NCBI GenBank assembly: GCA_043801595.1
Contig: JAZDLW010000021.1
Coordinates: forward strand, 89,128 to 153,127
Reading direction: 5' to 3'
From: Candidatus Aenigmatarchaeota archaeon
GTDB taxonomy: Archaea > Aenigmatarchaeota > Aenigmatarchaeia > JACPZZ01
DNA: 64,000 bases
Part shown: positions 1,772 through 38,497 of the stretch, piece by piece
Position numbering within the stretch: the stretch's first letter is position 1
Layout: each line of letters opens with the position of its first letter
Notes under the pieces: generated by a model
The model's database searches: none
What the model was told of the DNA's origin: nothing
The model's input: only the letters and a program-made list of their open reading frames with translations
Translations under genes and position numbers: made by a program

Positions 1772-2443
1772 ATGGCCGATGCAAAGGACATCGTAGCGAT
1801 CGTGATAAGCTTAATAATCCTTGCGTTTGCTGTCGAAAATATACCCACGTTGAAAAGTTCTGCGGGCAGCCTATTTACATTGTTCTCGATAACGCTGCCG
1901 GAAATAAGCCCGCACACGTCGACATTCCCCATTTCAATGGACGCGGGCGTTGCATCGCAGCCGATTAGCATAAACGCGGATTCGATACAAATTCTGGAAG
2001 TGAACTCGAAAAACGTATCGCTCGTTTTCGATGATCGGCAGATAATCGTCAATCCTTCCGTGCTCGAAGACATAGTCATCTCATCATACTCTGGAAAGAT
2101 TTCATCTTTCACAATAAACGGTTCGCTACGCCTTGACGGAAACGCAAAAGGCATAGCTTCGAACCTCGTGACAATAACATCGCAAAGAAGCGTTACTGTT
2201 ACCGGTAACATATCGTTCGGAACAGTCAAGCTTTCCGGCGTGTCTGGCGGTACCATTTCAGTGAGCAACGCTGTTGGAAGCGCAGTTTACAACAAAACGA
2301 ACACTGTTTCGCTACTCGGAGACAATGTGAAAATAGACAAGTTCAACGGGGATATTTCAATCGGGTCGTACGGCGTGATTCTTGACGGCACTGCATCTTA
2401 CTTTGAAATAAAGAGTGCTGGCAAAACTGTGCAGATCGGATAA
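1772..2443 (+). CDS. Hypothetical membrane-anchored protein (N-terminal TM helix, beta-rich ectodomain)
   Basis: At 223 aa it is longer and less compositionally odd than the overlapping antisense ORF at 1735..2268. It has an N-terminal TM segment (IVAIVISLIILAFAV). Confidence 0.45.
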   Translation: MADAKDIVAIVISLIILAFAVENIPTLKSSAGSLFTLFSITLPEISPHTSTFPISMDAGVASQPISINADSIQILEVNSKNVSLVFDDRQIIVNPSVLEDIVISSYSGKISSFTINGSLRLDGNAKGIASNLVTITSQRSVTVTGNISFGTVKLSGVSGGTISVSNAVGSAVYNKTNTVSLLGDNVKIDKFNGDISIGSYGVILDGTASYFEIKSAGKTVQIG

Positions 2444-2445
2444 AA

Positions 2446-2808
2446 TTATTGTTCCGGTATTTCCACTTCATCACTGTTTTTCTTCGGTTTTCTGTGCTGC
2501 TTTCTTTGCTTTTCCTTTTTCTCTTGGTGCAAAAGCCCGGCTGCTGCCCAAATCATGTCAACGGCCTTTTTTACAAACATGTAGATTATGTAAAAGACAG
2601 ATCCCAGTATTCCGAAGATAAGTATGCTGTCGAAGTTCAGGTTGTTGTAAAATCCGAAATAATTCAAAACGACCGGAAATGCCATTGATATCAGCGCGAT
2701 AACTGCGACCTTCAATAAAACGCGGATCACGGCATAAGTTGCTATAATGAAGAATGCGAATATCAACAGAAGCGCTATAGTCGATTCGTTGAAACCTGGC
2801 AATGGCAT
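2446..2808 (-). CDS. Small multi-TM membrane protein with a Lys-rich C-terminal tail
   Basis: Three hydrophobic helices followed by QEKKEKQRKQHRKPKK. Confidence 0.45.
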   Translation of the reverse strand: MPLPGFNESTIALLLIFAFFIIATYAVIRVLLKVAVIALISMAFPVVLNYFGFYNNLNFDSILIFGILGSVFYIIYMFVKKAVDMIWAAAGLLHQEKKEKQRKQHRKPKKNSDEVEIPEQ

Positions 2809-3001
2809 AAAACAAGTTGGTGTGGATGCAATATTAATATTACGCTTTTTGGGACAGCTAAATCATACGCTTATAGGCTAGCGGAATGGATTTGTCAAAT
2901 AGGGCAGGCAGTTCTCTCGCTCCTTCGGCTGTACCCAACTAAACCAGGATAACCCGCGCCAGTCGCGCTTTTAACTCCTAAAAATTTACTCATATTAAGG
3001 C

Positions 3002-3661
3002 ATGATAGACTTCAACAAGATGGTAACCAACCATATTGAACGAGAGCATCGTCCGAAACAGATCGGACGGTATTATCCGTCAGAAGTCGGCGGCTGCTTG
3101 AGAAAAACGTGGTATTCTTACAAGTATCCCAAGCAAGTTGATCCAGAATTAATGAAAATATTCGAACTCGGCAACATAATGCACGGTTTCGTCGTAGAGG
3201 TTTTAAAAAGCGAGAAGAATCAAGAGGTTGAACTGCTAAAATCCGAATTCCCGCTTAAAATCGAGGAAAAAGACTTCACGATCTCTGGGCGAGTAGACGA
3301 TCTGATACTCGTCAAAGCCAGCGGAAAGAACGTTTTAGTCGAGGTAAAATCGACAAAAGACATCAAATTCGTCAAAAAAGCGCAGCCGAGCCATGAGATG
3401 CAACTGGTTTTCTACATGCACGCGTCGGGCGTACATAACGGTGTTATTCTCTATGTAGACAAATCGAACCTTCAAAGCAAGACGTTTGAAGTCCCGTACA
3501 CAAAGGAGAAGGCGGATGAAATTTTAGATAGATTCAAGCTGTTGAACGATTCTTTAGTTAACAATAACATGCCCGAGGCAGAAGCGACCAAAACCAAGGA
3601 AACAACGTGGATGTGCAAGTACTGCGAATACGCGGATAAATGCAAGAAAGGGGAAGGATAA
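3002..3661 (+). CDS. Cas4-like / DUF83 PD-(D/E)XK nuclease with a 4Fe-4S cysteine set (standalone, no CRISPR array)
   Basis: N-terminal CLRKTWY (compare Cas4 CPRKxWY). RecB motifs RVDDL...VEVKSTK and QLVFYMH. C-terminal C-x2-C-x5-C (CKYCEYADKC). Confidence 0.75.
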   Translation: MIDFNKMVTNHIEREHRPKQIGRYYPSEVGGCLRKTWYSYKYPKQVDPELMKIFELGNIMHGFVVEVLKSEKNQEVELLKSEFPLKIEEKDFTISGRVDDLILVKASGKNVLVEVKSTKDIKFVKKAQPSHEMQLVFYMHASGVHNGVILYVDKSNLQSKTFEVPYTKEKADEILDRFKLLNDSLVNNNMPEAEATKTKETTWMCKYCEYADKCKKGEG

Positions 3662-3748
3662 AGAAGGCGGGGATGTTTAGGGATTTGTATATAAACTAAA
3701 ATTGGTTGATGCGTACAAGTTTTTATACGATTTAAATTAACAATAATT

Positions 3749-6700
3749 ATGGATTTGTTTGTAAAAGATGTAATTGATAGGTTTAGTCAAGGTTTAACAT
3801 TAGACGGTGAGAAGCGTATTTTTGAAGATGGGAAGGAATTATCTTCCGATTTTCTAAAAGAACGTGCTAAACCAGAATCCTATACAATAGAACTAATTAT
3901 ACGAAAAATATTCGATAAATTAGAAGTAGATATATTACCAGAAAAACAAATAGAAGTTTTGGATTTGGAACTAAATGAAAAATTACGAAATGTTGATTTC
4001 AGAATAAAGTCTAAAAATCTAAAAATTTTAGTAGAAGCAAAGCCTGTAAATTCCGATCTAAAAACCGATTCTTCTTCAGGCGCTGTAAATCAAATAAAAG
4101 GGTTATTCAAAATGACAGAAGTTAGCAATAATTACGATTTTGGAATAGCGACAGATGGATTGAAATGGATATTCATAGATAATTCTGGAAAGAAAACGGA
4201 AGAGATTGATATACGAGATAGTTTCGATAGACTAAAAGAGTTAATTTTAGGAAAAGAAAAAGTTATTTCAAGAGAAACCGAAGAAGAAATTTCTAAAAAA
4301 TTTTATGATTGGTACAATGCGTTGTTACATGGAGGTAAATACAAGAATCATCTAAACATAACAAAAAATATCTCAAAAAAATATTGTTTGGTAGAGAATA
4401 TTTTATCTGCGCCAATTGTGGAGGAAAGAGAACAAATTGCGCAGACAATAATGGATCGTTTGATTTTCATAAAATTTTTACAGTCGAAGGGTATAATAAA
4501 CTTTGATGTGTTAAACTATTTGTCGAACTTAGAAGAAAAGAGTCTTAATGATACGTTAAGACAATTGTTTTTCAACGTCCTTAACACCGAAAAAGGAAAA
4601 CGTGAAGAAATAGATCATAAATTGAATAATATACCATATCTTAATGGAAGTTTATTTGTAAGAACCGAAGAAGAGCTTAAAAATCCTGATTATAGGATAA
4701 GGGCTTATATATTAAAAGAAATTATAACGTTTTTAGATTCATTCAAGTTTATACACGTTGAACGATTATCAAACCAGAAAACTTTGGATCCCGAGATTCT
4801 AGGTTACATATTCGAGCAAGCGATGACAGCTTCCGATCGGCACGGAACGGGAGCTTATTATACTTCAAAAGAAATAACCAATTACATATCACAAAATACA
4901 ATTTATCCGATAATAGTTAAACGTGCAAATGAATATTTAAGAAAAATAGGGTACAAAGAAGGAGAGTTAATAAAAACTATAGATGACTTGTTCGATAAAA
5001 TTAATCCTCCGTCAATAAAGAACATAATGACTGAGGTCGTATATAATTTAAAAGTATGCGATAATTCTTGTGGTTCTGGTGCATTTTTACTTGCTGTTGG
5101 AGAAATTCTGTTTAATTTGTGGAAACGGGCTAAGGAAATAGTAAATCTTCCGATGCCTGATTATTGGTTCAAGAAAGAAATTATTAAAAATTGTATTTAT
5201 GGTGTTGATAAAAACCCAAATGCGATAGAAATAGCAAAATTGAGGTTGTGGTTGTGGATAGTTGATTCGTATAGTCCGGAAAAATTTGAGCCGTTACCGA
5301 ATATAGAATATAACGTGCGTTGTGGAAACAGCCTGATTGGTTATATTAGCATAGAAAAATTTGAGCAGAATAAGACAGATCTTAACGATTATGGAGATAC
5401 TTTAACTGAAAGATCTTTGTATAAAACATTGGCGCGAAGAGCGGATTTAATAAGAAGATATAAGTCGTTATCAGGCGATGGTGCAAAGTTATTGAAAAGC
5501 GAGTTAAATCGTATAGATGATGGTATTAAACGACTTCTAGATAATAAACTATTTCTAGAAATTCAAAAGGAAATCAAAAATGTGAAGTTCGAAGACATTA
5601 GAAGACTCAGAGCATTTCACTGGGGATTTGAATTTGGAAATGTTTTTAAAGATAACAACTCTGAGAGAGGTTTCGATGCAATGGTAGGTAATCCACCATA
5701 CCTAGAATCCAGAAGTCCTCAATTTACAGATGAAATGAAGGATATGATACAATACAGTGTTAAAAAAGAATTTCCTGAGGAAAACAATCTGATTGGAAGA
5801 GGTTGTGATTTGCTTGTATATTTTTATATTAGAGGATTAAGCATAATTAAAAGCGATGGATTTATATCGTTCATCACACAAAATTCATGGCTAGATACTG
5901 ATTATGGAAAGATGTTTCAACGCTTCATTTCTAATAACACCAATGTTAAGGCTATTGTTGATAGCGATTTCAAATATTTCAGTAATGCCAATATCAATAC
6001 AGTAGTAACATTTTTTGTAGGTAATAAAAAGTGTGTGGACAGTAAAAATAAAACTTTATTTTTAAATTACCACATTCGATTTGGAGAAATTAATTATATG
6101 CTACCTGTTATTTCTGACGATATGGAACAACCAAAAAAAATATCCATAAAAATCTTTGATCAATCTGAATTGAAAAATACCGAATTTAAGTGGGGACTTT
6201 TGCTTTTTTCAGATAATAGATTTTTAGAGATTTTGAGTATAATGAATAAGAAAGGTAAGAAATTGGATGATTTAGGATATGGTTGTGGTCAGGGACTTAA
6301 CATAACTAAGGATCACTTAATTGATATGAATAAAATGAAAGAATTGGGTATAAATTCGAAATCAATGGTTCCAATAATGTCATCAGAAGATGGTGCACCT
6401 TACAATCTTTCCAAGACACAATTTTATTTAATAAATAAAGATAAGTTAAGTTCTGATAAACTGCAACAAATTAAAAATCAAAGTATAAAAATTTTAGATA
6501 AAATTTATTCAACAAGATTGCGACCAAACCTCATACTTCCAAGAGGAATAGGCAGGCATTTCTGTTGTATGAACGAAGTAAATGCATTTACTACGAGTAT
6601 GGTAGAAATATATGTTAAGTCAAACGATTATGATAAATCTGTAAGATTATGGACTTTTTTAAATTCTTCTTTATTATGGTTGCTGAGGGAGATCTCTGGA

Positions 6701-6988
6701 AGAAAGAATCTTGGTGGAGGAATGTTGAAGGCAGAAGCTACGGATTTAAAGAATTTTGAGTTGTATTTTGATTTAGATGTTAAGAAATGCAAAGAAATTT
6801 ATAGTATGACGATGGGGAAAGAAGCCGAGCCAGCATTATTGGAGATTGGCACAACGGCACACAAGATGATCGATAAAATGGTTTTTGATTATTTAGGTTT
6901 AAATAACAATCAGCGAAGTTATGTAATTGAAAAATTAAAAGATGTCGTAACTAGAAGAGAAAGAAGATCCTCGAAGGTAAGTGTTTAG
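3749..6988 (+). CDS. Type IIG restriction-modification fusion enzyme (N-terminal PD-(D/E)XK endonuclease plus gamma-class N6-adenine methyltransferase plus C-terminal TRD)
   Basis: The N-terminus carries D..x13..E-A-K (VDFRI...ILVEAKP). Methyltransferase motif I is VCDNSCGSGAFLLAVG and motif IV is NPPY (MVGNPPYLE). The 1,079-aa size and architecture resemble MmeI/Eco57I-type enzymes. The coding sequence is very AT-rich. Confidence 0.7.
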   Translation: MDLFVKDVIDRFSQGLTLDGEKRIFEDGKELSSDFLKERAKPESYTIELIIRKIFDKLEVDILPEKQIEVLDLELNEKLRNVDFRIKSKNLKILVEAKPVNSDLKTDSSSGAVNQIKGLFKMTEVSNNYDFGIATDGLKWIFIDNSGKKTEEIDIRDSFDRLKELILGKEKVISRETEEEISKKFYDWYNALLHGGKYKNHLNITKNISKKYCLVENILSAPIVEEREQIAQTIMDRLIFIKFLQSKGIINFDVLNYLSNLEEKSLNDTLRQLFFNVLNTEKGKREEIDHKLNNIPYLNGSLFVRTEEELKNPDYRIRAYILKEIITFLDSFKFIHVERLSNQKTLDPEILGYIFEQAMTASDRHGTGAYYTSKEITNYISQNTIYPIIVKRANEYLRKIGYKEGELIKTIDDLFDKINPPSIKNIMTEVVYNLKVCDNSCGSGAFLLAVGEILFNLWKRAKEIVNLPMPDYWFKKEIIKNCIYGVDKNPNAIEIAKLRLWLWIVDSYSPEKFEPLPNIEYNVRCGNSLIGYISIEKFEQNKTDLNDYGDTLTERSLYKTLARRADLIRRYKSLSGDGAKLLKSELNRIDDGIKRLLDNKLFLEIQKEIKNVKFEDIRRLRAFHWGFEFGNVFKDNNSERGFDAMVGNPPYLESRSPQFTDEMKDMIQYSVKKEFPEENNLIGRGCDLLVYFYIRGLSIIKSDGFISFITQNSWLDTDYGKMFQRFISNNTNVKAIVDSDFKYFSNANINTVVTFFVGNKKCVDSKNKTLFLNYHIRFGEINYMLPVISDDMEQPKKISIKIFDQSELKNTEFKWGLLLFSDNRFLEILSIMNKKGKKLDDLGYGCGQGLNITKDHLIDMNKMKELGINSKSMVPIMSSEDGAPYNLSKTQFYLINKDKLSSDKLQQIKNQSIKILDKIYSTRLRPNLILPRGIGRHFCCMNEVNAFTTSMVEIYVKSNDYDKSVRLWTFLNSSLLWLLREISGRKNLGGGMLKAEATDLKNFELYFDLDVKKCKEIYSMTMGKEAEPALLEIGTTAHKMIDKMVFDYLGLNNNQRSYVIEKLKDVVTRRERRSSKVSV

Positions 6989-7031
6989 ATATAATCTTCT
7001 CAATAATTTATCAATTTAAAATTTAATTTAG

Positions 7032-7337
7032 GTGAATTTGATGGATACTATAAGGGTCTCATGCCCCTTTTGCAATAAAGAAATATCAGTTTACTATAAA
7101 CCATCAATCTTTCAGGCTGATAAATCACATAGTGCCGCCGCCGGAACCAAAACCTCCTTTTTCAAAACCAAAGAAAAATACGAAGTCCTTGAAGATTGCC
7201 CTAATTGTCATAAATCTAAGAAAGAAATCCAGAAAGCTCTTGAACAAGGCGTTTCTAAACCCAAATCCAAGGAAGAACTGAAAAGGCAACTTGAGGAGTT
7301 GGGATTGATGAAAAAATTTGGCGGAGAAACTGAATAA
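7032..7337 (+). CDS. Small Zn-ribbon protein; looks like a truncated paralog of the 7964 gene
   Basis: Has CPFC...CPNC. The N-terminus (SCPFCNKEISVYYKP) matches the 7964 protein (VCPECHSV...YYKP). The C-terminal tail (KRQLEELGLMKKF) matches out-of-frame sequence 3' of the 7964 stop. Confidence 0.5.
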   Translation: MNLMDTIRVSCPFCNKEISVYYKPSIFQADKSHSAAAGTKTSFFKTKEKYEVLEDCPNCHKSKKEIQKALEQGVSKPKSKEELKRQLEELGLMKKFGGETE

Positions 7338-7472
7338 TATAAAAAACTAAGGATATAGTCAAATTAAAAATATTTTAAATTTACCTAGCAAGCTATCACA
7401 CTGTTCCTAAACAGTGCCCGTTAAAGCCGTAATAAAACAGACTATTTATGTGAGCATAGCCACATTTTTGAT

Positions 7473-7967
7473 ATGACCGTTCAAAAAGACGCGCTTTTGC
7501 TTCTTGCAGCCCTTAAGAAAGACCATAAAATATGGGCAATTTCACCATGCGGTCACGAATACCGCCTTTCTGACAGTGAACTATTTTATGGGTCAGAACT
7601 TACTCCAAAAGCAAAAGAGTTTTTAGACTTGCAAAATGAAGGAATCAAGCAATTGAAAAAAGAAGCCAAAGATTTCAAATACAAACTAACAGAAGGTTTT
7701 ACAAAAAAGAGCGTTGAAGTCAAGATAGGGAAGACAATAGAAAAGATTGTTCCTGTTCTGCCAGGATTTCCATACAATCCTTTGGATTGCAGGTCGCTTT
7801 TTGACCCCATCGACTATACAGTGTTTGTTGGTGCATCCAAAGATTCTGTATCTCACATAGATTTTGTTGATATCAAAACAGGTAATGCCAGATTGAGTCC
7901 TGTCCAAAAAACTATACGTGATGTAGTTTTGGATGGCAAAGTCAATATTAGAGTAGTGAACAGATGA
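7473..7967 (+). CDS. Uncharacterised protein, paralog of the 7964 gene (N-terminal Cys/His motif, coiled coil, C-terminal PD-(D/E)XK-like core)
   Basis: Shares SPCGHEYRLSD / CPECHSVNRLSD, RxxFDP(I/V)(D/E)(Y/F)xVF and (D/E)xK (DIK / ENK) with the next ORF. Its stop overlaps the next start by 4 nt. Confidence 0.55.
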   Translation: MTVQKDALLLLAALKKDHKIWAISPCGHEYRLSDSELFYGSELTPKAKEFLDLQNEGIKQLKKEAKDFKYKLTEGFTKKSVEVKIGKTIEKIVPVLPGFPYNPLDCRSLFDPIDYTVFVGASKDSVSHIDFVDIKTGNARLSPVQKTIRDVVLDGKVNIRVVNR

Positions 7968-8479
7968 ATGACTTTCTCCTCTTTTTGCATGAAAACAGAC
8001 ATATTTTTAGTGTATGCCCCGAATGTCACTCTGTTAACCGTTTAAGTGATTTGCAACTTTCCGAAAAAGGATATTACAAGCCAGATTGGCTTGATGGATT
8101 GCAAGTAGAACAACAACGACTAGGAGACAAAATCGCCAAACTTGATGAAAAGAAGAAAGATCTTCAAAGAGTTGCAAAAGAGAAGGCAGAACGAATCGAA
8201 TTGCCAAAGGTACTCAATCGTCTAGCTCCGTTTTTTACAAAACATAAAATTGATCCAAGAGATGTTAGAACCATATTTGACCCAGTAGAGTTCCTAGTCT
8301 TCCAAGGGATGAATTCTCCAGAAGGCGTTGATAGTGTCACACTCCTGCATCTTGGCGAGAATAAACACCTAATCAAATCGATTGAAGACACAATTGCCAA
8401 AAAAGATTTTGGATGGAACACCATTCAAGTTAAAGATGATGGAAGCGTCAGTGAAGACCCACTTAAAATCAAGATTTGA
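7964..8479 (+). CDS. Uncharacterised protein, paralog of the 7473 gene; its C-terminal tail appears frameshifted
   Basis: See 7473. Sequence 8467-8520 in the +2 frame encodes LKKQLEELGLTERFESK, homologous to the C-terminus of the 7032 protein. Confidence 0.55.
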   Translation: MNDFLLFLHENRHIFSVCPECHSVNRLSDLQLSEKGYYKPDWLDGLQVEQQRLGDKIAKLDEKKKDLQRVAKEKAERIELPKVLNRLAPFFTKHKIDPRDVRTIFDPVEFLVFQGMNSPEGVDSVTLLHLGENKHLIKSIEDTIAKKDFGWNTIQVKDDGSVSEDPLKIKI

Positions 8480-8586
8480 AGAAGCAGTTGGAAGAACTGG
8501 GGTTGACGGAACGGTTTGAAAGTAAGTAGAAAGTATAATTTATGATTTATTATATTTATTATAAAATGCACAAATATGATTCGCGA

Positions 8587-9054
8587 TTAATTGAATAAAT
8601 TAGATCTTATAATTTTGTCCCTAGTAGCTACTATTTGCTGCTCATCGTACCAAGGTTTCAAAGATTTTACAATGCCGATTAAACTGTCGTCAGAAAGAGG
8701 GATCGACCTATCTGTGTGCAAAAACAGTATAGAGCCAAACAGTTCTACTTTACTAGGATCTGAAACCTCACTGGAAAAATAATCTTTAATCTTATCGATT
8801 TTTTCTTTATCTTGATCTGAAAAATTATATTCTTGAGGCTGCTTATTACCTTGATAAAATCCGAAAGCATCCTTCGCCAATGAGGATGAATAAGGACCTC
8901 TTAAATGCCAATCAAAATCGTATCCTAGCTTTATACCAGCACTCTGCAAAATACAGGTCAATTTTTGTATAGTTAACCTGTCATCATAATTGTTTATATT
9001 GAATGACCTACTAGCTATATCCTCCAACGCATGGAAAAGATCCATTGAGATCAT
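8587..9054 (-). CDS. Panacea-domain (DUF4065, SocA/PanA-like) protein; candidate antitoxin or defence-associated partner
   Basis: LTIQKLTCILQSAGIKLGYDFDWHLRGPYSSSLAKDAF fits the DUF4065 signature (QKL...W..GP...L). It is likely co-transcribed with the 9110..9835 gene. Confidence 0.5.
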   Translation of the reverse strand: MISMDLFHALEDIASRSFNINNYDDRLTIQKLTCILQSAGIKLGYDFDWHLRGPYSSSLAKDAFGFYQGNKQPQEYNFSDQDKEKIDKIKDYFSSEVSDPSKVELFGSILFLHTDRSIPLSDDSLIGIVKSLKPWYDEQQIVATRDKIIRSNLFN

Positions 9055-9109
9055 TCTACCTATTTAATAATTATCTGCGCCATATATAAGGGTTTCTAGT
9101 CCACCCTTC

Positions 9110-9835
9110 CTATTCAGTTTTTTGGTACTGGGAGTTCTTTACTATACTATCAATCAGAGCCTCTATCACATCTAGATTTTTATCAATATCTTTTCCTGCA
9201 TTTTTCAAATGGTTAGTTTCTTGACAAAAATCGTAAAGGGCTCTAAGACTTGTCAATAGATCACCGTCATTAAGTACTATGGGCTCTTTTAGAAAATGTT
9301 CTATGGTAAATAACTGGAAATCGGAATTTCTTTCTTTACTCCTCAGAAATCCCACATGCTCAGAAATCGAATTTATCTCATATCTTAGACCAGTAAACAT
9401 ACTTTCCGTTTTTACCTTTTGTTTCCTTTCTTCCAGCTTTTTAGTTTCATCGGCTAATTTTTTAAAAGCCCGTCCTGCACCACGCAAAGCCCAAACCATT
9501 TCACTTAAATCATCTTCTCTAACGAGATCGAGATCAGTGTTATCGAAAATGCGATCGTCTGGAAGTTTAACATCTTTTATAAAATATAATTTGTCATCTT
9601 CATTCGCTTTATCGACCAAAATTTTAATCCCTTTGTACAAAGAATCTGCCTTATCAGATTCGCAGATAACTTTTACTTCGGACTTATCTTTGACATTTTC
9701 TATTCGTGCATTGATACCCAATGATGTTGCGACTTTCTTTATATCCTCTCTTAAATCAGTTCCTTGAACGTCACTTTCTGATTCGCCAACGACTATAATT
9801 TTCTTGTACTCGATCATAGACAAAGATAATTCCAA
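9110..9835 (-). CDS. Uncharacterised 241-aa protein (N-terminal alpha/beta region IIVVGESESD, C-terminal helical region); candidate toxin/effector partner of the Panacea-like gene
   Basis: Unambiguous ORF in the AT-rich island, immediately upstream and same-strand of the DUF4065-like gene. I recognise no family. Confidence 0.5.
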   Translation of the reverse strand: MELSLSMIEYKKIIVVGESESDVQGTDLREDIKKVATSLGINARIENVKDKSEVKVICESDKADSLYKGIKILVDKANEDDKLYFIKDVKLPDDRIFDNTDLDLVREDDLSEMVWALRGAGRAFKKLADETKKLEERKQKVKTESMFTGLRYEINSISEHVGFLRSKERNSDFQLFTIEHFLKEPIVLNDGDLLTSLRALYDFCQETNHLKNAGKDIDKNLDVIEALIDSIVKNSQYQKTE

Positions 9836-9885
9836 TCAAACCCTTAAATAACCTATTTATATCAAAATCCTCTAAACACTACACC

Positions 9886-11160
9886 TCATCCGATCTCCTT
9901 GAATCCCGTATATTTTATTAGGGGCCTCGGAACTTTTATATATCCGTCAGCCGACTGGAAGTTCTCCATTATCGCGACCAATACGCGGTCCGTGACCGCT
10001 GTCGAGTTAAGCGTATGCACGAATGACGATGGCGCAGCGCCTTCCTTCTCGCGCAACTTGATATTCAACCGTCGGGCCTGGTAATCCGTACAATTTGAGC
10101 ATGAAACGATTTCCCGATACTTCTGCTGCACTGGCATCCACGCTTCCACATCGTATTTCTTCGCAGCCACTGTTCCGATATCGCCGGTGCATATGTTTAC
10201 GACGCGGTACGGAATCTTCAGCGACTTTGTGATAGCCTCCGCATTATCAATAAGCTTCTCGTGCCACGCCCATGAATCAACGGGGTCGCAGATAACGATC
10301 TGCTCAACCTTTCCGAATTGATGCACACGAAAGATTCCTTTCGTGTCCTTGCCGTGCGAACCGGCCTCTTTGCGGAAGTTCACGCTGAAACCGGCGTATG
10401 TCAGCGGAAGATTTTCCTTAATTATCGTTTCATCCATGTGCATCGCTGTTAATGGGTGTTCTGAAGTGGCGATCATATGCAGATCCTCGCCTTCAACCTT
10501 GTACAGAACGTCGTTGAAGTCAGCGAGATCGACGACGCCCCTGTACGCATCGGTCTTCATCATGTACGGCGGCAATACGAGAGTGAATTTCTTTTTTGCC
10601 AGAAAGTCTATTGCGTATCTCATCAACGACATTTCCAATAACGCAAGTTTCCCTTTTATGAAATAAAATCTTGCGCCGGATATTTTGGCCGCGCGCTCAA
10701 TGTCTATCATACCGAGTTTTATTCCGAGGTCGATATGATCCTTCGCTTCAAATTTTTGTTGCTTGATGTTTCCCCATTTGCGGACAACGACGTTATCAGC
10801 GTCGCTTGCGCCGACCGGCACGGATTCATGCAGTATGTTTGGAATCCGCATCAGCGCGCCTTGCACTTCTGCCCTGAGTTCGCCGGCCTGCTGATCCAAT
10901 AACCTTATAGATTCTGAGACGCCGACCATTTCCCTGATCTTCGTTTTCGCGTCTGCACCCTTCCTTTTTATTTCCGCTATCTCCGTTGTAACAGTGTTCC
11001 TCTTGTTCTTCAGCGAATCGGCCTGCTGCATTAACTCGCGCAACTTCTGGTCGTTGCGTATTATCTGTTCCAGCAGTTTAAGCTTGTCAGTATCATTGCG
11101 CTTCTTAAGATCATTTCTTATCAAATCAGGATTTTCACGAATCAATCTTATGTCAAGCAT
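9886..11160 (-). CDS. serS: Seryl-tRNA synthetase
   Basis: N-terminal coiled coil (MLDIRLIRENPDLIRNDLKKRN...). Class II motifs FRKEAGSHGKDTKGIFRVHQF and C-terminal GYIKVP. Confidence 0.9.
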   Translation of the reverse strand: MLDIRLIRENPDLIRNDLKKRNDTDKLKLLEQIIRNDQKLRELMQQADSLKNKRNTVTTEIAEIKRKGADAKTKIREMVGVSESIRLLDQQAGELRAEVQGALMRIPNILHESVPVGASDADNVVVRKWGNIKQQKFEAKDHIDLGIKLGMIDIERAAKISGARFYFIKGKLALLEMSLMRYAIDFLAKKKFTLVLPPYMMKTDAYRGVVDLADFNDVLYKVEGEDLHMIATSEHPLTAMHMDETIIKENLPLTYAGFSVNFRKEAGSHGKDTKGIFRVHQFGKVEQIVICDPVDSWAWHEKLIDNAEAITKSLKIPYRVVNICTGDIGTVAAKKYDVEAWMPVQQKYREIVSCSNCTDYQARRLNIKLREKEGAAPSSFVHTLNSTAVTDRVLVAIMENFQSADGYIKVPRPLIKYTGFKEIG

Positions 11161-11164
11161 AGCG

Positions 11165-12265
11165 TCATCTCGTTATATCAGACTCCGAAAACATTTCAAG
11201 TAATTTTTTGTTCGCCGGCTTCTCGAAATGCCTCCTGACCGGCTCGAGTATTGTTGCCAACGACTCGGAAACCGCGTTTTTCAAGTCAACGGGATGGAGT
11301 TTTCCATCCGCATAATGTGCCTCCAAGTCAGCATAGCTACTGAAGGAAACGTCCCCGCCGAATTTTTCGGGGCGACTTATATCCAAATTTTTTGACTTGT
11401 TGAATATTATGTATTTGCAGATTTCCATAATCGGGTTTCCGCCTACGGTTTTTTCCGGACAAAAGGAGGCGGCTATCTTTTCTTTGATAACATCGGGCGA
11501 ATCGTGAACGAATATGCTGGCTTTCGGTATTGATTTTGACATTTTGCTGGCGATTTCGCCATCATCCGAACCCATTTTCTTTGGGCCCTGCAAACCCATG
11601 AGCAGATGATGATGGATAGCAACTGGTTTGTACCATTTTAATTTCTCGCCCGCCTCCCTGCTGAGCAGCGTAACCTTGCGCTGGTCGAACCCGAGCTGGC
11701 AGATGTCAGCACCCATATGGAACGGATCCGCAGCCTGCATTGCCGGATACAATAATTGCGCGGCGTACTGCATATCTTTCTGCTGCCGCCCCATTATCGC
11801 GCTGCACCTTACCATCCTGTCTATTGTCGTGATCTTCGATATGGCAACAACTTTTTTCCAGTATTCCGGGTCCTTTACGTGATCCGAAGCCCAAACTATT
11901 TCGGTTTTTTTATCATCGATGCCGCAGGCCTTCCACACCTCGATAAGGTAATCGCCGGCTTTCTGTATTTTTTCGAGGTCTCCGCCGAGCTTGTTGTTTA
12001 TCAGCGCGAACCAGTCCGCAACGTAAAGTTTGAAACGGATTCCCGCGTCCATCAGAATTTGCAGCTGTATGGCGCGCATTAAACCCGAACCCAAATGCGC
12101 ATAACCTGACGGTTCAAAGCCGTCGTATGCGACCGGATGAGTTTTAGTTTCGAAAAGCGCCCTGAGTTCGCTTTCGGTCACGATTTCCTCGCCGACTTTT
12201 TTAACCAGTTCGATACGCGTTTCCAAGTCCACTTTAACCCTCTCGTATATCCATAATCTTCGCAT
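11165..12265 (-). CDS. tyrS: Tyrosyl-tRNA synthetase (archaeal type)
   Basis: Has GFEPSG...HLG, KMSKS (ASKMSKS) and a close match to M. jannaschii TyrRS (RPEKFGGD, LHPVDLKNAV, ILEPVRRHF). Confidence 0.9.
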   Translation of the reverse strand: MRRLWIYERVKVDLETRIELVKKVGEEIVTESELRALFETKTHPVAYDGFEPSGYAHLGSGLMRAIQLQILMDAGIRFKLYVADWFALINNKLGGDLEKIQKAGDYLIEVWKACGIDDKKTEIVWASDHVKDPEYWKKVVAISKITTIDRMVRCSAIMGRQQKDMQYAAQLLYPAMQAADPFHMGADICQLGFDQRKVTLLSREAGEKLKWYKPVAIHHHLLMGLQGPKKMGSDDGEIASKMSKSIPKASIFVHDSPDVIKEKIAASFCPEKTVGGNPIMEICKYIIFNKSKNLDISRPEKFGGDVSFSSYADLEAHYADGKLHPVDLKNAVSESLATILEPVRRHFEKPANKKLLEMFSESDITR

Positions 12266-13466: not shown

Positions 13467-13568
13467 ACTACAGACCTCTTCTTTATGATTTGAAAAGATT
13501 GGTATTAAAATACAGATTTTGCTTAAGCCCTTGAAAAAGGCTTATCCGATTAAATTTTTTAGAAAACA

Positions 13569-13668
13569 ACGGAAACCAATTGGTTTCAACGAAAAACCGA
13601 AGTTTTTCGTGCATGGGAAAACTCGGTTTCCCCATGCCGTGCATAGGAAATTCTAATGATTTCCTATG
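13569..13668. repeat. Intergenic tandem-hairpin repeat, locus A (four consecutive stem-loops)
   Basis: GAAACCAATTGGTTTC palindrome; CGAAAAAC-cgaa-GTTTTTCG; GCATGGGAAAAC-tcg-GTTTCCCCATGC; CATAGGAAA-n9-TTTCCTATG. It abuts the 3' end of the minus-strand tRNA. Confidence 0.7.
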
Positions 13669-13676
13669 AAGTTTAA

Positions 13677-13771
13677 ATGCGGCGGCCGGGATTTGAACCC
13701 GGGTTGTGAGCTTGGAAGGCTCGCGTTTCCTGGACTTAAAAAAGTCTCTTACCAGGCTGGACCACCGCCGC
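13677..13771 (-). tRNA. tRNA, probably Gly (UCC), carrying a roughly 19-22 nt insertion at a non-canonical position between the D-arm and the anticodon stem
   Basis: Acceptor stem GCGGCGG/CCGCCGC. T-arm CCGGG-UUCAAAU-CCCGG. Anticodon hairpin GAGC-CUUCCAA-GCUC. Total length about 95 nt. The 6-nt GUCCAG is directly repeated around the insertion. Confidence 0.55.
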
Positions 13772-13882
13772 AATTTCTGGTTGAAACAGACATTGTCTGT
13801 TTCTATCTGCTTATGCGCCAGCCAGCAACTGCATCCATTTCGATCTATTTACTATCCTTTTCTTTTTAAGAATTGATTGTTT

Positions 13883-14360: not shown

Positions 14361-14523
14361 TGGGATTGCAGGGATTTGAACCCTGATTGGCTGGTATCTT
14401 CAAAATCATCGGCTTGCGCCTCGTATCTCCAACAATAGACCGAAACAGATGCAATTTTGTATGGCATCTGTTTCTGTTTGCCGCTCTGGAGCCAGCTGTC
14501 TTACCTGATTAGACCACAATCCC
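14361..14523 (-). tRNA. tRNA-Trp (CCA) with a roughly 90-nt intron at the canonical 37/38 position
   Basis: 5' exon GGGAUUG-UG-GUC..GAC-A-GCUGG-CUCCAG, 3' exon A-CCAGC-CAAU-CAGGG-UUCAAAU-CCCUG-CAAUCCC-A. The intron contains an 8-bp hairpin (ACAGAUGC/GCAUCUGU) and a GAUGA element. Confidence 0.75.
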
Positions 14524-17132: not shown

Positions 17133-19511
17133 ATGCAAATGAAAAAGGCAATTGCAATCGGTATGGGAACACTCCTAGCAGGAGCTTCTCTGGCCTTTGC
17201 AGGCGCAGCAGTAACTGACCTAACTAAGGTCTTTCCTTCTACCGGTACTAGCGACTTGGTAGCGTCGAATACGCTTATTGTCGTTGGCGCTGGTGTAGAT
17301 TCCACAGACACAGTAGCTGGTGTGGATGTAGCAGGAAGATTGGGAAGTACATCGACTACGACCCAGACTTTGACTACAACAGGCAGCAACGTGGACGGAA
17401 TCGAAAAGGACGGTGTGAATATTTGTATAAGCACCACAGCAGCAAGCTGTATCTTGAGTACCGCGGCCGGCACAGGCAGCGCGTTCCCAAGCGGTGTAGT
17501 TATGACAAATACGCATTACTCCGGACTGAAGAAAGGGACCATATCGTGGGACAGTAATGACTACGACTACAAGGAGCAAGCAGACCTTAGCGGAGTGACA
17601 ATGAGTCACGACGTGACAACAGACAAAGTGAACGGAACCGAGACAATGGTAGTTGAAAGCGGAGACCTAATATATAACTACGTTTTTGACAAGGCATTGA
17701 ATATCTCGAGTAAGAGCACAAAGGGCACAATTGCGAACCCGGAGTACACGTACCCGGTTAACGTAAAGCTCTTGGGCAAGACGTTCACCATTGTGGGTGT
17801 TGGTGCATCTTCAATCAAAGCCCTTGCGGGTGAGAGCGGAGAGATCAGCGCTACGACAGGTCTGACATCTGGCGCATACACAATATACGCCACACAAGGT
17901 GTAAGTGATTCGTGGGCAAAGATCGTTGTAAAAGACGCATCTGGTACTGAAGTTGCATCGAAATCGATCAGCTCGGCCAGCAGCTACGACTTTTCGGCAC
18001 AAGGCATAACAGTCAAAGTGACCGGAGTCAGAGCTATAGGCACGACCGGTGAGATCTCTGGTGTTGACGTAGTACTCGGCCCAACAGGCTCTGTTGAGAA
18101 AGAATACGACTCGACAGCTGATGTCACAAGCACTGGAACTGCAAGCGACTTATTCCCAGGTTCAACGGATTGGGGAATACAGACAACAGGTTTGAGTACC
18201 GGAACATATCCGGGCATTCCTAAGAGTGCAAAAATCCAGGTAGTTTACAAACCAAGCTCGACGCAATACCTGAAAGCGGGAGACAAGGTTACGTTCCCGA
18301 ACAGCTATGCTGAACTCGGATTTGAAGGGTTCAACACAGAAAAGTTCTCGACCATAACTGTCAAACCTTTCGGTGGAACTTCGACCTATGATGCCAACTC
18401 GACAGCTGATATTGTGGGAAGCGACCAATATGGTTTGGAAATAGCCTCGGATGTCTCGGGCTCAATAGTGAGCTTGGCAGGCAACAGCTATGATAAGGCA
18501 TATGTCTTGTTCAACAGGACTATGACTACGGCCACAGCTGGATATGGTACGCCATTCTGGATTGGTTTCTATGATAAGACCAGTAGCAAGATATTGGTCA
18601 ATAGAACCAGTGTAGACCTTGGTAACCTAGGCTTGATGGAAACGGCAAAAACGAACGTAACAACCGCAGAGTACGGACACGGCATATTGACCGCGTCGAA
18701 CTCGACATACACCTATCCGTTTAAGATAACTTACGGCGGATCCGGTGATGCGGATTGGTACCTGAACGTTACGTTGAACTTCACCAACGGAATTCAATCC
18801 GTTAAGGTGGGAAGTGTTCCAACAACGTTCTTTGACGTAACAGCCGATTTCCGAAACAAGACTGCAGGCCTTACCACAGCTGCACCTCAATTTAGATTGG
18901 GTGCGACCGCGGCAAGCGCAGAGGACAGCGAAATTTTGGCAACAACCAACGGACAGACAAACCAGCCTGTAGGCAAGAAGACACAGGACATCGTATCGGA
19001 CAGTGAGACTATCTTAGTCAACACTAACACGAACGGTGGATCGGACAGCTTTGTCTTCAAAGTACCTTCGAAGAGATTAGCTGCGAAGGTCTACTTTGGT
19101 AAGATAGGCGCGACGAGCGGTACGAGCACGTACCAGGCAGCTGTGCCAGTAACAACGCCTTTGGGCAAGTTGACGTCTGACTACACTGACGCAACCATAA
19201 AGACAACCGGCAAGAATTTGATCTTGGTCGGTGGTCCTTGTGCAAACAAGTTTGTCGGAACATTGATGAATGTAACCGGCAGCGACTGCTTGGACAAGTG
19301 GTTTGCGGAAGTTGGAGTGACGACTCTGGCAGGTGCAAAAGACAAGGCATTGATCAAGGTAGTCAATGACGCCTTTGAAACAGGCAAGGCAGCGATAATA
19401 GTTGCCGGAACTGACGCAAAGGACACCAGAAATGCAGCAGCGAAATTAATCGCTGACGGCCTGACTGGATCGAAGCTTGTGTACAGCACTGCCACAGCTG
19501 GCAGCCAATAA
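17133..19511 (+). CDS. S-layer/surface glycoprotein-like secreted protein (792 aa, many N-x-S/T sequons)
   Basis: Signal peptide (MQMKKAIAIGMGTLLAGASLAFAGAA), a Thr/Ser/Gly-rich beta-rich body, strong ribosome-binding site and a compound hairpin terminator downstream. Confidence 0.6.
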   Translation: MQMKKAIAIGMGTLLAGASLAFAGAAVTDLTKVFPSTGTSDLVASNTLIVVGAGVDSTDTVAGVDVAGRLGSTSTTTQTLTTTGSNVDGIEKDGVNICISTTAASCILSTAAGTGSAFPSGVVMTNTHYSGLKKGTISWDSNDYDYKEQADLSGVTMSHDVTTDKVNGTETMVVESGDLIYNYVFDKALNISSKSTKGTIANPEYTYPVNVKLLGKTFTIVGVGASSIKALAGESGEISATTGLTSGAYTIYATQGVSDSWAKIVVKDASGTEVASKSISSASSYDFSAQGITVKVTGVRAIGTTGEISGVDVVLGPTGSVEKEYDSTADVTSTGTASDLFPGSTDWGIQTTGLSTGTYPGIPKSAKIQVVYKPSSTQYLKAGDKVTFPNSYAELGFEGFNTEKFSTITVKPFGGTSTYDANSTADIVGSDQYGLEIASDVSGSIVSLAGNSYDKAYVLFNRTMTTATAGYGTPFWIGFYDKTSSKILVNRTSVDLGNLGLMETAKTNVTTAEYGHGILTASNSTYTYPFKITYGGSGDADWYLNVTLNFTNGIQSVKVGSVPTTFFDVTADFRNKTAGLTTAAPQFRLGATAASAEDSEILATTNGQTNQPVGKKTQDIVSDSETILVNTNTNGGSDSFVFKVPSKRLAAKVYFGKIGATSGTSTYQAAVPVTTPLGKLTSDYTDATIKTTGKNLILVGGPCANKFVGTLMNVTGSDCLDKWFAEVGVTTLAGAKDKALIKVVNDAFETGKAAIIVAGTDAKDTRNAAAKLIADGLTGSKLVYSTATAGSQ

Positions 19512-19534
19512 AATCGACAACATTTAGTTTAAAC

Positions 19535-19596
19535 GGAGTCGGGTTGAGTCGAAAGACGCATACCAATGGTATGCGTCAATCTGCTCGCCCGACTCC
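19535..19596. terminator. Compound hairpin 3' of the S-layer-like gene, containing an ACGCATACC-WWT-GGTATGCGT palindrome
   Basis: Outer stem GGAGTCGGG/CCCGACTCC. Inner perfect palindrome GACGCATACCAATGGTATGCGTC at 19555..19577. Followed by an AT-rich stretch. Confidence 0.5.
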
Positions 19597-19912
19597 AATT
19601 TCTAATTTTTTTGCTGCTTAGTTGAAAAACTCTGCTAAACTCTTTTAACAAAATAGATTTTACAACTCGGTATTTCGCAAAACTCTAATCTACGTCATCT
19701 TACCGGGATTAACTCGATATAAAATAGAATATCAGCTATTTCTTGAAATACCAGGCGAACAGGAGCAAAATAACCGCCAAAAGAATAAGCCACGAATATA
19801 TGTTCCAATCGATCATTGCTGAAAAAAGCAATATCATAATAGATATAGATGTTAATGCGCCGCTTTTGGAAAGCTTCTTCACGATTGACGTTGAATTTAC
19901 GGCTTAATAATG

Positions 19913-20335
19913 CTATAACTTTCCAATGTCCTCTTTCCAGATTTTAGGATTCTTTTTTATGAAATCCGCCATCAATCGCTTGCACTCATCCAAATCCATA
20001 TCAGCGACTTTAACGCCGCGCGATTCCATGAATTTCCGTGCAGCCGTGAGGTTTTTAGATTCTCCGACAACAACTTTTTTTATCCCGAACTGGACTACTG
20101 CGCCGGCGCAGAGGTAACACGGCATTAATGTCGAATACAGCGTCGTGTTCCTGTACGTCCCGATACGGCCTGCGTTGCGCAGACAGTCTATTTCAGCATG
20201 TATTACGGGATCGTTCTCCTGTATGCGTTTGTTGCGCCCGCTGCCGATTATTTTTCCTTTTCTGACCAGAACCGAACCGATGGGTATCCCGCCTTCGCGC
20301 AGCCCTTTGCGCGCCTCCGCGATTGCTGCTGTCAT
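19913..20335 (-). CDS. Cytosine deaminase (Fcy1-like CDA-fold zinc deaminase)
   Basis: HAEIDCL...PCYLCAGA zinc motifs. The C-terminus ECKRLMADFIKKNPKIWKEDIGKL closely matches yeast Fcy1 (CKKIMKQFIDERPQDWFEDIGE). The start is set at the internal MTAAIAEARKG to avoid overlapping the upstream paralog. Confidence 0.75.
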   Translation of the reverse strand: MTAAIAEARKGLREGGIPIGSVLVRKGKIIGSGRNKRIQENDPVIHAEIDCLRNAGRIGTYRNTTLYSTLMPCYLCAGAVVQFGIKKVVVGESKNLTAARKFMESRGVKVADMDLDECKRLMADFIKKNPKIWKEDIGKL

Positions 20336-20346
20336 GAATTTATCTT

Positions 20347-20799
20347 TCAATACAGCACCCTTCCTTTCATCCTTCTCCATTTTGCAAACTCGACCAGGCA
20401 TTCGTTCCTATGCATTTGCTCTGACGGAATACCGGAACCGCGCACAATGGAATATATTTTTTTATCCCGAAACCCGATTTTCGCAGCGTCGGCTGCGGTA
20501 CAACCGTGATAAAATTTATTTATGTTTGCCCAACATATCGCCGCCAAGCACATCGGACACGGTTCGCATGTCGTGTATATCACACAACCAGACAGGTCGA
20601 ATGTTTTTAATTTTTTCGCGGCGTTTCTTATCGCATTGATTTCGGCGTGCGCAGTCGGATCGTTTGTTTTGACAACTTCGTTATGAGCCGTTGAAATTAT
20701 TTTTCCATTATGCACAATTACTGCGCCGAACGGACCGCCGTGATTCAACTTAACGCCTTTGCGCGCCTCGGTTATGGCCGCGAATATGAATTTATTCAT
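20347..20799 (-). CDS. Guanine deaminase (GuaD-type CDA-fold)
   Basis: GGPFGAVIV..G.II...N.V....DPTAHAE..AIR and CEPCPMCL.AI.WA...DAA..GF.D..IY align closely with B. subtilis GuaD. Confidence 0.75.
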   Translation of the reverse strand: MNKFIFAAITEARKGVKLNHGGPFGAVIVHNGKIISTAHNEVVKTNDPTAHAEINAIRNAAKKLKTFDLSGCVIYTTCEPCPMCLAAICWANINKFYHGCTAADAAKIGFRDKKIYSIVRGSGIPSEQMHRNECLVEFAKWRRMKGRVLY

Positions 20800-38366: not shown

Positions 38367-38371
38367 TTTCA

Positions 38372-38439
38372 ACGAAAAACCGAAGTTTTCAACGAAAAGC
38401 TTCGGCTTTTCGTGCATAGGAAAATGTAATTTTCCTATG
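38372..38439. repeat. Intergenic tandem-hairpin repeat, locus C
   Basis: CGAAAAAC-cgaa-GTTTTC (imperfect); ACGAAAAGC-ttcg-GCTTTTCGT; CATAGGAAAA-tgtaa-TTTTCCTATG. Confidence 0.7.
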
Positions 38440-38497
38440 TCGTAAGCGCTGTTTCAAATATTTAACAAGAGGATAAGTTACAAAGAAAGGCGATTCG

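Follow-up and report, generated by a model that had tools for sequence, protein, structure and literature searches.

A probable mosaic defence island inserted into the tyrS-serS gene string of an Aenigmatarchaeota archaeon

Gene content and layout of the block

The DNA analysed here, referred to as the window, is a stretch of 64 kb (64,000 nucleotides) from a metagenome-assembled genome (MAG) of a Candidatus Aenigmatarchaeota archaeon, a member of the DPANN archaea with a small genome. Near its left end, seven genes occupy a block of 7,077 bp (2809-9885) that separates a membrane-protein gene from serS. A preliminary description, made from the letters of the sequence, had read this block as an AT-rich accessory island of nuclease, restriction-modification (RM) and toxin-antitoxin-like genes lying between housekeeping genes, and had proposed that it was acquired horizontally. 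The gene coordinates given there were as claimed, and the composition, synteny, and PADLOC and Pfam content of the block support a horizontally acquired accessory or defence island, with corrections to its borders and to the relationships of some of its genes.

The block is bordered on the left by a core gene for a membrane protein of 120 amino acids (aa; 2446-2808, minus strand), whose homologue directly follows serS in relatives. It begins with an intergenic junction of 193 bp (2809-3001), which lies between the divergent membrane-protein and Cas4-like genes and has no counterpart in the four relatives compared (L001-L004). Two AT-rich tracts within this junction (2969-2989 and 2830-2845), judged by eye, may be TATA-like elements. 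Five genes then follow on the plus strand. These encode a Cas4-family PD-(D/E)xK nuclease of 219 aa (3002-3661; PF12705, PF01930 and PADLOC), a Type IIG restriction-modification enzyme of 1079 aa (3749-6988; PF07669 and PADLOC), a putative zinc-ribbon protein of 101 aa recognised by its CxxC motifs (7032-7337), and two proteins of 164 and 171 aa, here called subunits A and B, that Pfam assigns to PF10107 (7473-7967 and 7964-8479). The last two genes are on the minus strand, and encode a 155-aa homologue of the DarG C-terminal domain, identified by profile and fold (8587-9054), and a 241-aa protein with an acylphosphatase-like domain and a four-helix bundle (9110-9835; 235 aa in the NCBI annotation, from the ATG at 9817). 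The right junction is an AT-rich spacer of 50 bp (9836-9885) between the 241-aa gene and the stop codon of serS. The latter is a core gene (9886-11160, minus strand; TIGR00414, E = 4.3e-153), with tyrS upstream of it (11165-12265, minus strand; NF006330, E = 1.9e-114).

Base composition and codon usage

The GC content is 0.328 for 3662-9885 and 0.340 for the whole block, compared with 0.458 for the window outside 2809-9885, which bears out the AT-richness noted in the preliminary description. When plotted in 500-bp intervals, GC lies at 0.41-0.50 before about 3.5 kb, at 0.26-0.39 over about 3.5-9.9 kb, and at 0.45-0.50 thereafter. Values below 0.37 are found in 54 of the 67 island intervals (500 bp, step 100); outside the island there are two, both from one intergenic stretch at 19.5 kb. 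On the coarser scale of 2-kb intervals, GC stays at 0.44 or above in the rest of the 64 kb, with the exception of 2001-4000, which overlaps the island.

GC at third codon positions (GC3) was used as a measure of codon composition that is independent of amino-acid content. It was chosen because a synonymous-codon log-likelihood score proved to be a poor statistic, one that did not separate island from core genes (z = -1.1 to +1.1). Across 53 core open reading frames (ORFs), GC3 has a mean of 0.540 and a standard deviation of 0.042. All of the island genes apart from the Cas4-like gene (six of seven) fall well below this distribution, with z = -4.3 to -6.7. The lowest GC3 (0.260) belongs to the Type IIG gene, which is also the most AT-rich of the island (GC 0.307); the values are 0.298 for the 241-aa gene, 0.321 for the 155-aa gene, 0.321 and 0.320 for the two PF10107 genes, and 0.363 for the 101-aa gene. 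Thus, at 4-7 standard deviations below core GC3, these six genes do not match the average of the window.

Synteny and host lineage

In a scan with one genome per species, the nearest serS sequences were all from Aenigmatarchaeota (56-74% identity). The four relatives L001-L004 have the same gene order as the window, namely a 249-aa gene, a 159-aa gene, tyrS, serS, the membrane-protein gene, a 223-aa gene and SpoU (the last in L001 and L003), and their membrane-protein homologues after serS are 48-58% identical to that of the window (tblastn). In all four, serS is joined directly to the membrane-protein gene, as the preliminary description would have it for a genome lacking the island. The two genes share a 4-bp ATGA overlap in L001, where the ATG lies on the TGA of serS, and are separated by 12 bp in L003, 5 bp in L004 and 58 bp in L002. 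Because serS abuts or overlaps its neighbour in these relatives, the whole of 2809-9885 is an insertion or a lineage-specific block. The left edge is thereby placed at 2809, rather than at 2990 or near 3700 as first described. The right border does coincide with serS, but since that gene is on the minus strand the island lies beyond its 3' end and not, as had been stated, upstream of it.

In 80 archaeal serS loci, tblastn with the seven island proteins gave no match (E <= 1e-3) up to 10 kb from serS. In more distant Aenigmatarchaeota (L005-L007), serS is followed by topoisomerase I and other housekeeping genes. The 155-, 235- and 164-aa proteins are found with 100% identity in a Candidatus Aenigmatarchaeota MAG at NCBI (tags V1836_02890 and V1836_02895).

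Cas4-like nuclease

The product of 3002-3661 matches PF12705 (E = 7.7e-11), PF01930 (E = 3.6e-7), the PADLOC Cas4 model (E = 9.4e-15) and the structure 4ic1 in the PDB (E = 2e-10). Its identification as a Cas4-like nuclease, and that of its neighbour as a Type IIG enzyme, are therefore confirmed by both PADLOC and Pfam. The RecB-type motifs VDD (98-100), EVK (114-116) and QLVFY (134-138; QhxxY) are present, as are four cysteines in the Cas4 arrangement (C32, C205, C208 and C214), and in these features, as in its similarity to 4ic1, the protein resembles Cas4 and the viral or solo Cas4 exonucleases. It differs from Cas4 proteins of CRISPR adaptation in several respects. The score against the curated equivalog TIGR00372 is 48.5 bits, below the cutoff of 65. 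The best profile match is a viral family, phrog_1706 (E = 8e-34), and the protein aligns over its full length with phage Cas4-domain exonucleases at about 26% identity; Sulfolobus virus records match too. No regularly spaced repeat family indicative of a CRISPR array is present in the window, which ends 3 kb to the left of the gene, and there are no core cas genes among its other 52 ORFs. Judged by its sequence, the protein is best called a solo Cas4-family exonuclease.

Type IIG enzyme and zinc-ribbon gene

The protein encoded at 3749-6988 matches PF07669 (Eco57I) at E = 1.9e-30 and 106.7 bits (cutoff 25.3), the MmeI_Mtase and MmeI_hel families, and the PADLOC model REase_MTase_IIG (E = 4.7e-49). 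All the elements expected of an enzyme of the MmeI/Eco57I type are combined in one chain of about 1080 aa: an N-terminal nuclease motif (D84...E96-A-K98, i.e. D...ExK), an MmeI-type spacer and methyltransferase domain with motif I (DNSCGSGAFL, 438-447) and motif IV (NPPY, 648-651), and a C-terminal specificity region. By sequence, this gene encodes an intact Type IIG restriction-modification enzyme. Among plasmid-borne homologues the maximum identity is about 30%, to N-6 DNA methylase genes on Thermococcus and Methanocaldococcus plasmids. This distance, and the fact that the BREX PglX and DISARM DrmMI models also match, set it apart from the typical MmeI/Eco57I-type enzymes. No BREX or DISARM partner genes are found in the island. 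By analogy with its MmeI/Eco57I-type relatives, the enzyme would methylate the adenine of its recognition site on host DNA, and would cut unmodified incoming DNA at a fixed distance.

The small gene that follows (7032-7337) might belong to the same module. Its 101-aa product has the motifs CPFC (11-14) and CPNC (56-59) and a basic helical tail, and gives sub-threshold zinc-ribbon matches alone; no significant family match was obtained in Pfam, PADLOC, NCBIfam and PHROG scans. In the preliminary description it had been counted as one of three paralogues together with the two genes downstream. While those two are indeed paralogous, the 101-aa protein is not a member of the group: its BLASTP matches to them cover short segments and are not significant (E = 0.001 and 0.08). 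Nor is a homologue found beside the PF10107 pairs of L170-L173, so that this gene is not part of the conserved cassette described below.

Tandem PF10107 nuclease pair

Subunits A and B (7473-8479) match PF10107 at E = 3.3e-21 (76.2 bits) and E = 2.1e-10 (41.1 bits), respectively, compared with a Pfam cutoff of 23.8. They are paralogous to each other (23% identity, E = 2e-10), and their genes overlap by 4 bp. PF10107, or COG4741, is an uncharacterised minimal PD-(D/E)xK family (PMC1189080), annotated as ‘endonuclease related to archaeal Holliday junction resolvase’. Among the papers found, none characterises a member experimentally; no meaningful match was obtained for the PF10107 protein among PDB sequences, and PADLOC v2 has no model for either subunit.

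The catalytic motif of subunit A is intact, with DPIDY at 111-115 and DIKTG at 133-137, so that both the acidic residues and the (D/E)xK lysine described for the minimal PD-(D/E)xK core of COG4741 are retained (PMC1189080). Subunit B contains a CPEC motif (18-21) and has LLHLG (127-131) where the lysine would be expected. The same division is observed in other genomes, in that DIKTG is kept in all first-gene proteins examined and is absent from all six second-gene proteins (subunit B and five orthologues). In two further respects the pair departs from COG4741 as described. The reported N-terminal transmembrane helix is absent and is replaced by a cysteine-containing N-terminus and a helical region, and the two genes, one for an active and the other for a degenerate paralogue, are arranged in a tandem that looks obligate.

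There are 383 homologues of subunit A at E <= 1e-3. An overlapping or abutting tandem pair was found in all five other contexts inspected (L170, L171/L172, L173, L174 and L175), at 42-58% identity, and in all five it is accompanied by RM or other nuclease or defence-type genes. These neighbours include DpnI_C, Dam and Dcm methylases, Vsr and a helicase; a Dnd-associated protein with an SMC/AAA_15 ATPase and a helicase; GmrSD; HNH, BglII and ParB_N proteins; and Type I HsdR/HsdM with a serine recombinase. Subunit B has no match in 50,697 phage and 72,556 plasmid records. We infer that the two subunits, whose translation would be coupled, might form a heteromeric nuclease, one being catalytic and the other non-catalytic, with a structural or regulatory role.

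The DarG-like protein and its 241-aa neighbour

The 155-aa protein (8587-9054) is all-helical, with the signatures QKL (30-32), GPYS (53-56), ELxxS (104-108) and KPW (133-135). By profile and by fold it is homologous to the C-terminal toxin-binding domain of DarG (7yk3, chains B/D), and the PADLOC DarG model is matched in its C-terminal part, at positions 178-217 of 329 (E = 6.9e-6). Pfam and PADLOC yield no match to DarT or to a macrodomain in the island, and the protein does not belong to a DarTG system. It differs from DarG in that it stands alone, with neither the macrodomain nor the DarT partner.

The preliminary description had called the 155-aa and 241-aa genes a Panacea-like pair. For the 155-aa protein this holds at the level of the superfamily and not at that of the Pfam family. 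Panacea (DUF4065) proteins are homologous to the DarG C-terminal domain according to an analysis from 2026 (PMC13621843), and because the 155-aa protein is itself a homologue of that domain it can be placed in the Panacea superfamily. Membership of PF13274 was rejected at profile level, and among 129 members of the 155-aa family not one matches PF13274 or any other relevant Pfam family (E <= 0.01). A nearly invariant GPY (G53-P54-Y55), preceded by QKL, is found in this family, whereas the signature of the Panacea domain is a GPV motif (PMC8832971). The acylphosphatase-like partner may be a further difference from Panacea proteins such as PanA.

The family is large, comprising 2360 representative clusters at E <= 1e-3 and 1029 at E <= 1e-10 in a full profile search; a word-based search returned few relatives each for the 155-aa and 241-aa proteins. 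Adjacent same-strand genes were tabulated for 79 metagenomic loci with a family member, from a scan with a 12-sequence alignment. A member of the 241-aa family lies upstream in 16, and a protein with HD and HD_assoc_2 domains downstream in 30; the neighbour is a member of a family of about 415 aa in 10, and a thymidylate-synthase-like (ThyA-like) protein in 3. The commonest partner is thus the HD phosphohydrolase of about 470 aa, whose gene often overlaps that of the 155-aa homologue (L117, L121, L105 and 27 further loci; e.g. L117:3965-5846), an arrangement that may represent a regulated nucleotide-hydrolase module. At L081, a distant member of the family lies beside a weakly PIN-like ORF and an integrase-like gene. 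Swapping of a small constant antitoxin among varied toxins has been described for the Panacea antitoxins (PMC8832971), and the 155-aa family is similar to these in that it pairs with several unrelated partner families in two-gene units. The 155-aa protein is a candidate antitoxin or neutraliser.

The N-terminal domain of the 241-aa protein (9110-9835) is predicted to adopt a beta-alpha-beta-beta-alpha-beta topology, the acylphosphatase-like ferredoxin fold. In Foldseek comparisons acylphosphatases are matched at E of about 1e-3 and TM-scores of 0.58-0.64, with ACT domains scoring about equally. The protein of the window has no Pfam match at E <= 0.1, and the NCBIfam acylphosphatase profile is matched at E = 9.4e-5 but with only 22 bits (cutoff 109); homologues of the protein give weak matches to PF00708. 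A VQG..LR motif and a downstream Asn are invariant in the family, and we take these to be the phosphate-binding loop and the catalytic Asn of acylphosphatases. In the C-terminal half four helices form a bundle, in which the motif DDLxEMVWAL.GAG is invariant; the structural matches to this half are all generic. Neither the 155-aa nor the 241-aa protein has a Pfam family, and the latter has no PADLOC match.

The 241/155 pair occurs in the same order at L084, L089 and L085 (the last from a Thermococci archaeon), where both partners are 32-50% identical to the proteins of the window. In L085 (2529-8144) such a pair follows a metallo-beta-lactamase/RMMBL protein, and a protein with HFX_2341_N, weak Cas_NE0113 and winged-helix domains is encoded nearby, which suggests another defence-type neighbourhood. 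The 155-aa protein, as a DarG C-terminal-domain or Panacea-type protein, might bind and restrain the 241-aa protein, a proposal to which we give slightly better than an even chance. The 241-aa protein is a candidate effector or toxin partner.

Origin and nature of the block

Taken together, the block appears to be a mosaic defence island of 7.1 kb that has been inserted into the tight tyrS-serS-membrane-protein gene string of an Aenigmatarchaeota archaeon, a reading to which we assign a probability of about 0.8. Matches to known defence models are concentrated in it (PADLOC REase_MTase_IIG, Cas4 and DarG-like, at the E values given above), with no model for the other four genes. As in other defence and genomic islands, composition is atypical, the genes are absent at the syntenic site in relatives, an RM enzyme, nucleases and a toxin-antitoxin-like pair are clustered, and the modules are known from other contexts. 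At least four independently mobile modules may be involved: the solo Cas4-family exonuclease, putatively an Fe-S enzyme and already native in composition (module 1); the Type IIG enzyme with the zinc-ribbon protein (module 2); the PF10107 pair (module 3); and the 241/155 pair (module 4). The composition, the insertion relative to the relatives, the recurrence of modules 3 and 4 elsewhere, the domain identities and the catalytic motifs are directly observed; the enzymatic activities and any antiviral role are putative.

A number of observations weigh against this reading or parts of it. In a serS tree L001-L004 form a clade to which the lineage of the window is the sister, and therefore parsimony alone cannot split gain from loss, one loss being equal to one gain. 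No integrase or transposase domain was found in the block by Pfam and PHROG scans, no tRNA target adjoins it (the nearest tRNA reported by ARAGORN is at 13.7 kb), and there are no flanking repeats of 14 nt or more at its boundaries. Acquisition in a single piece is put in question by the Cas4-like gene, which is host-like in GC3 (0.545, z = +0.1); its total GC (0.430) is slightly low, and the source of this is in codon positions 1 and 2. Strong PADLOC v2 matches are limited to the Cas4-like and Type IIG proteins, and a defence role of the other five genes is suggested by context. As to the proposed toxin-antitoxin pair, no toxin domain is recognisable in the 241-aa protein, the 155-aa protein has no match to PF13274 at E <= 0.1 and its relatives P0002 and P0003 have none at E <= 1, and the structure models of both proteins were built from 3-4 sequences each and have a mean pLDDT of 76.

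Since the Cas4-like gene is inserted according to synteny yet native in codon composition, the island is a mosaic, and the block was either acquired in more than one piece or contains a Cas4-like gene that is much older than the rest. The present island differs from known defence and genomic islands in that it has no integrase, tRNA target or flanking repeats, is only 7.1 kb long, lies in a tight housekeeping gene string of a small genome, and includes one gene of native composition. Direct and inverted repeats were considered as att sites and rejected, as the matches were at chance level (up to 31 nt, 71-86% identity) and none was at the boundaries. No structured RNA was detected in the island and its junctions (Rfam, E <= 0.1). 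The joins at 2809 and 9885 are those of the contig as assembled for the MAG.

Four other explanations were weighed. If the block were ancestral at this site and had been deleted in the common ancestor of L001-L004, a single loss would account for the distribution as parsimoniously as a single gain, given the sister position of the window lineage, and the native GC3 of the Cas4-like gene would be accommodated as well. An old resident block, however, should have lost the deviation of 4-7 standard deviations in GC3 that persists in six of its seven genes. The ATGA overlap in L001 and the gaps of 5-12 bp in L003 and L004 also have the appearance of an operon junction left intact, not of a scar from a deletion, the more distant Aenigmatarchaeota lack island genes near serS, and modules 3 and 4 are found elsewhere in settings unrelated to this one. 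Gain is thus favoured by the marked deviation in GC3, by the operon-like junction that is intact in relatives and by the unrelated contexts of the modules, and an ancestral block appears unlikely. It is highly improbable that the junctions are an artefact of assembly or binning, with a low-GC foreign fragment stitched into the contig. The genome is a MAG and GC changes abruptly at 9886, but the genes on either side are core genes in syntenic order, belong to one lineage and share a contig of 170 kb, the changes in GC fall at gene boundaries, a double chimeric join that is exactly intergenic would be improbable, and the Cas4-like gene is compositionally native yet absent at the site in relatives.

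The function of the block admits further alternatives. It might be what is left, after decay, of an integrated virus or plasmid whose nucleases served replication, recombination or anti-defence of that element and not the immunity of the host. The best match of the Cas4-like protein to a viral exonuclease family (phrog_1706, 8e-34), the Type IIG homologues on small archaeal plasmids and the integrase-like gene adjoining the 155-aa family member of L081 would all suit such an origin. Against it, the block contains no integrase, capsid, replication or partition gene, and no att-like repeat or tRNA; five of its seven genes have an absent or weak PHROG match, and subunit B is unmatched in the phage and plasmid records searched. 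A viral or plasmid remnant is therefore considered rather unlikely. More plausible, though still doubtful, is that the 241/155 pair is a mobile unit of two components with a metabolic or regulatory function, such as a phosphatase and a helical regulator, instead of a toxin-antitoxin or defence module. In keeping with this, the 241-aa protein has no recognisable toxic domain and no PADLOC match, resembles acylphosphatases and ACT domains at its N-terminus, and ends in a generic four-helix bundle; nucleotide metabolism is represented among the other partners of the 155-aa family, by HD phosphohydrolases and ThyA-like proteins. Yet the sole solved relative of the 155-aa protein is a DarG domain that binds and inhibits the toxin DarT (PMC13621843), partner swapping in the family resembles that of the Panacea antitoxins (PMC8832971), and the pair is found in defence-type neighbourhoods both here and in L085. 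Restraint of a 241-aa effector by the 155-aa protein thus remains the favoured account of module 4.

Other features of the window and of related genomes

The one other low-GC spot of the window (19500-19900, GC 0.366) was considered as a second island and rejected, being an intergenic region. It follows an ORF of 792 aa in which Thr, Ser and Gly are abundant and which might encode a surface protein, and a 48-aa hydrophobic ORF lies within it. Two adjacent ORFs nearby (19913-20401 and 20347-20799, both minus strand) have, by eye, HAE...PC..C zinc motifs of the cytidine/deoxycytidylate-deaminase type, and a repeat of 40 nt is common to both (20304-20343 and 20756-20795). The PADLOC dCTPase model matches three ORFs outside the island, possibly with the deaminase-type ORFs among them. 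ACN-rich, codon-periodic repeats at 49105-49221 and 54396-54563 are located in very large ORFs (45185-49387 and 54307-56934), and probably represent Thr-rich linkers in surface proteins.

An intergenic element of about 75 nt is present in two copies that are 70% identical (13567-13640 and 38370-38443). On either strand it can form two to three very stable hairpins (z = -4.3 to -7.1 compared with shuffled sequences), and it may represent either a small structured repeat or a remnant resembling a miniature inverted-repeat transposable element. Rfam reports a tRNA over 163 nt at 14361-14523 (minus strand, 50.7 bits) that was missed by ARAGORN and presumably contains an intron. Conversely, ARAGORN reports a 96-nt tRNA-Thr(agt) at 13677-13772 (minus strand) for which there is no Rfam report at E <= 0.1. 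In one of the related Aenigmatarchaeota genomes (L007:15734-19591), a gene for a CDC48-type AAA ATPase carries an intein with a LAGLIDADG homing-endonuclease domain.

Significance

As such the island is an ordinary defence island, a textbook small example that has been verified by synteny in a DPANN genome. It is unusual solely in the absence of mobility signatures and in its position within a compact housekeeping operon. Both the Type IIG enzyme and the solo Cas4-family nuclease are of ordinary kinds. The value of the block is as an entry point to modules that are not modelled by Pfam or PADLOC v2: the 155-aa family is absent from Pfam, and neither the tandem PF10107 pair nor the 155-aa family is present as a module in PADLOC v2. 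In a limited literature search, no papers were found that describe the tandem PF10107 pair, or the 155-aa family with its swapping partners, as systems. It is a tentative suggestion, held with less confidence than the alternative, that both are undescribed, the one as a set of swappable neutralisers like the DarG C-terminal domain that act on varied effectors, and the other as a heteromeric nuclease of an active and a dead PF10107 subunit that travels with RM genes.

The tandem PF10107 pair and the family related to the DarG C-terminal domain are thus two candidates for experiment. If toxicity of the 241-aa protein and its neutralisation by the 155-aa protein were confirmed, the former, with its acylphosphatase-like domain and helical bundle, would represent a biochemically new type of toxin, with the HD phosphohydrolase taking the place of partner elsewhere. 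Similarly, if the PF10107 subunits do assemble as proposed, the heteromer would serve archaea and bacteria as a nuclease against viruses, either independent or auxiliary.

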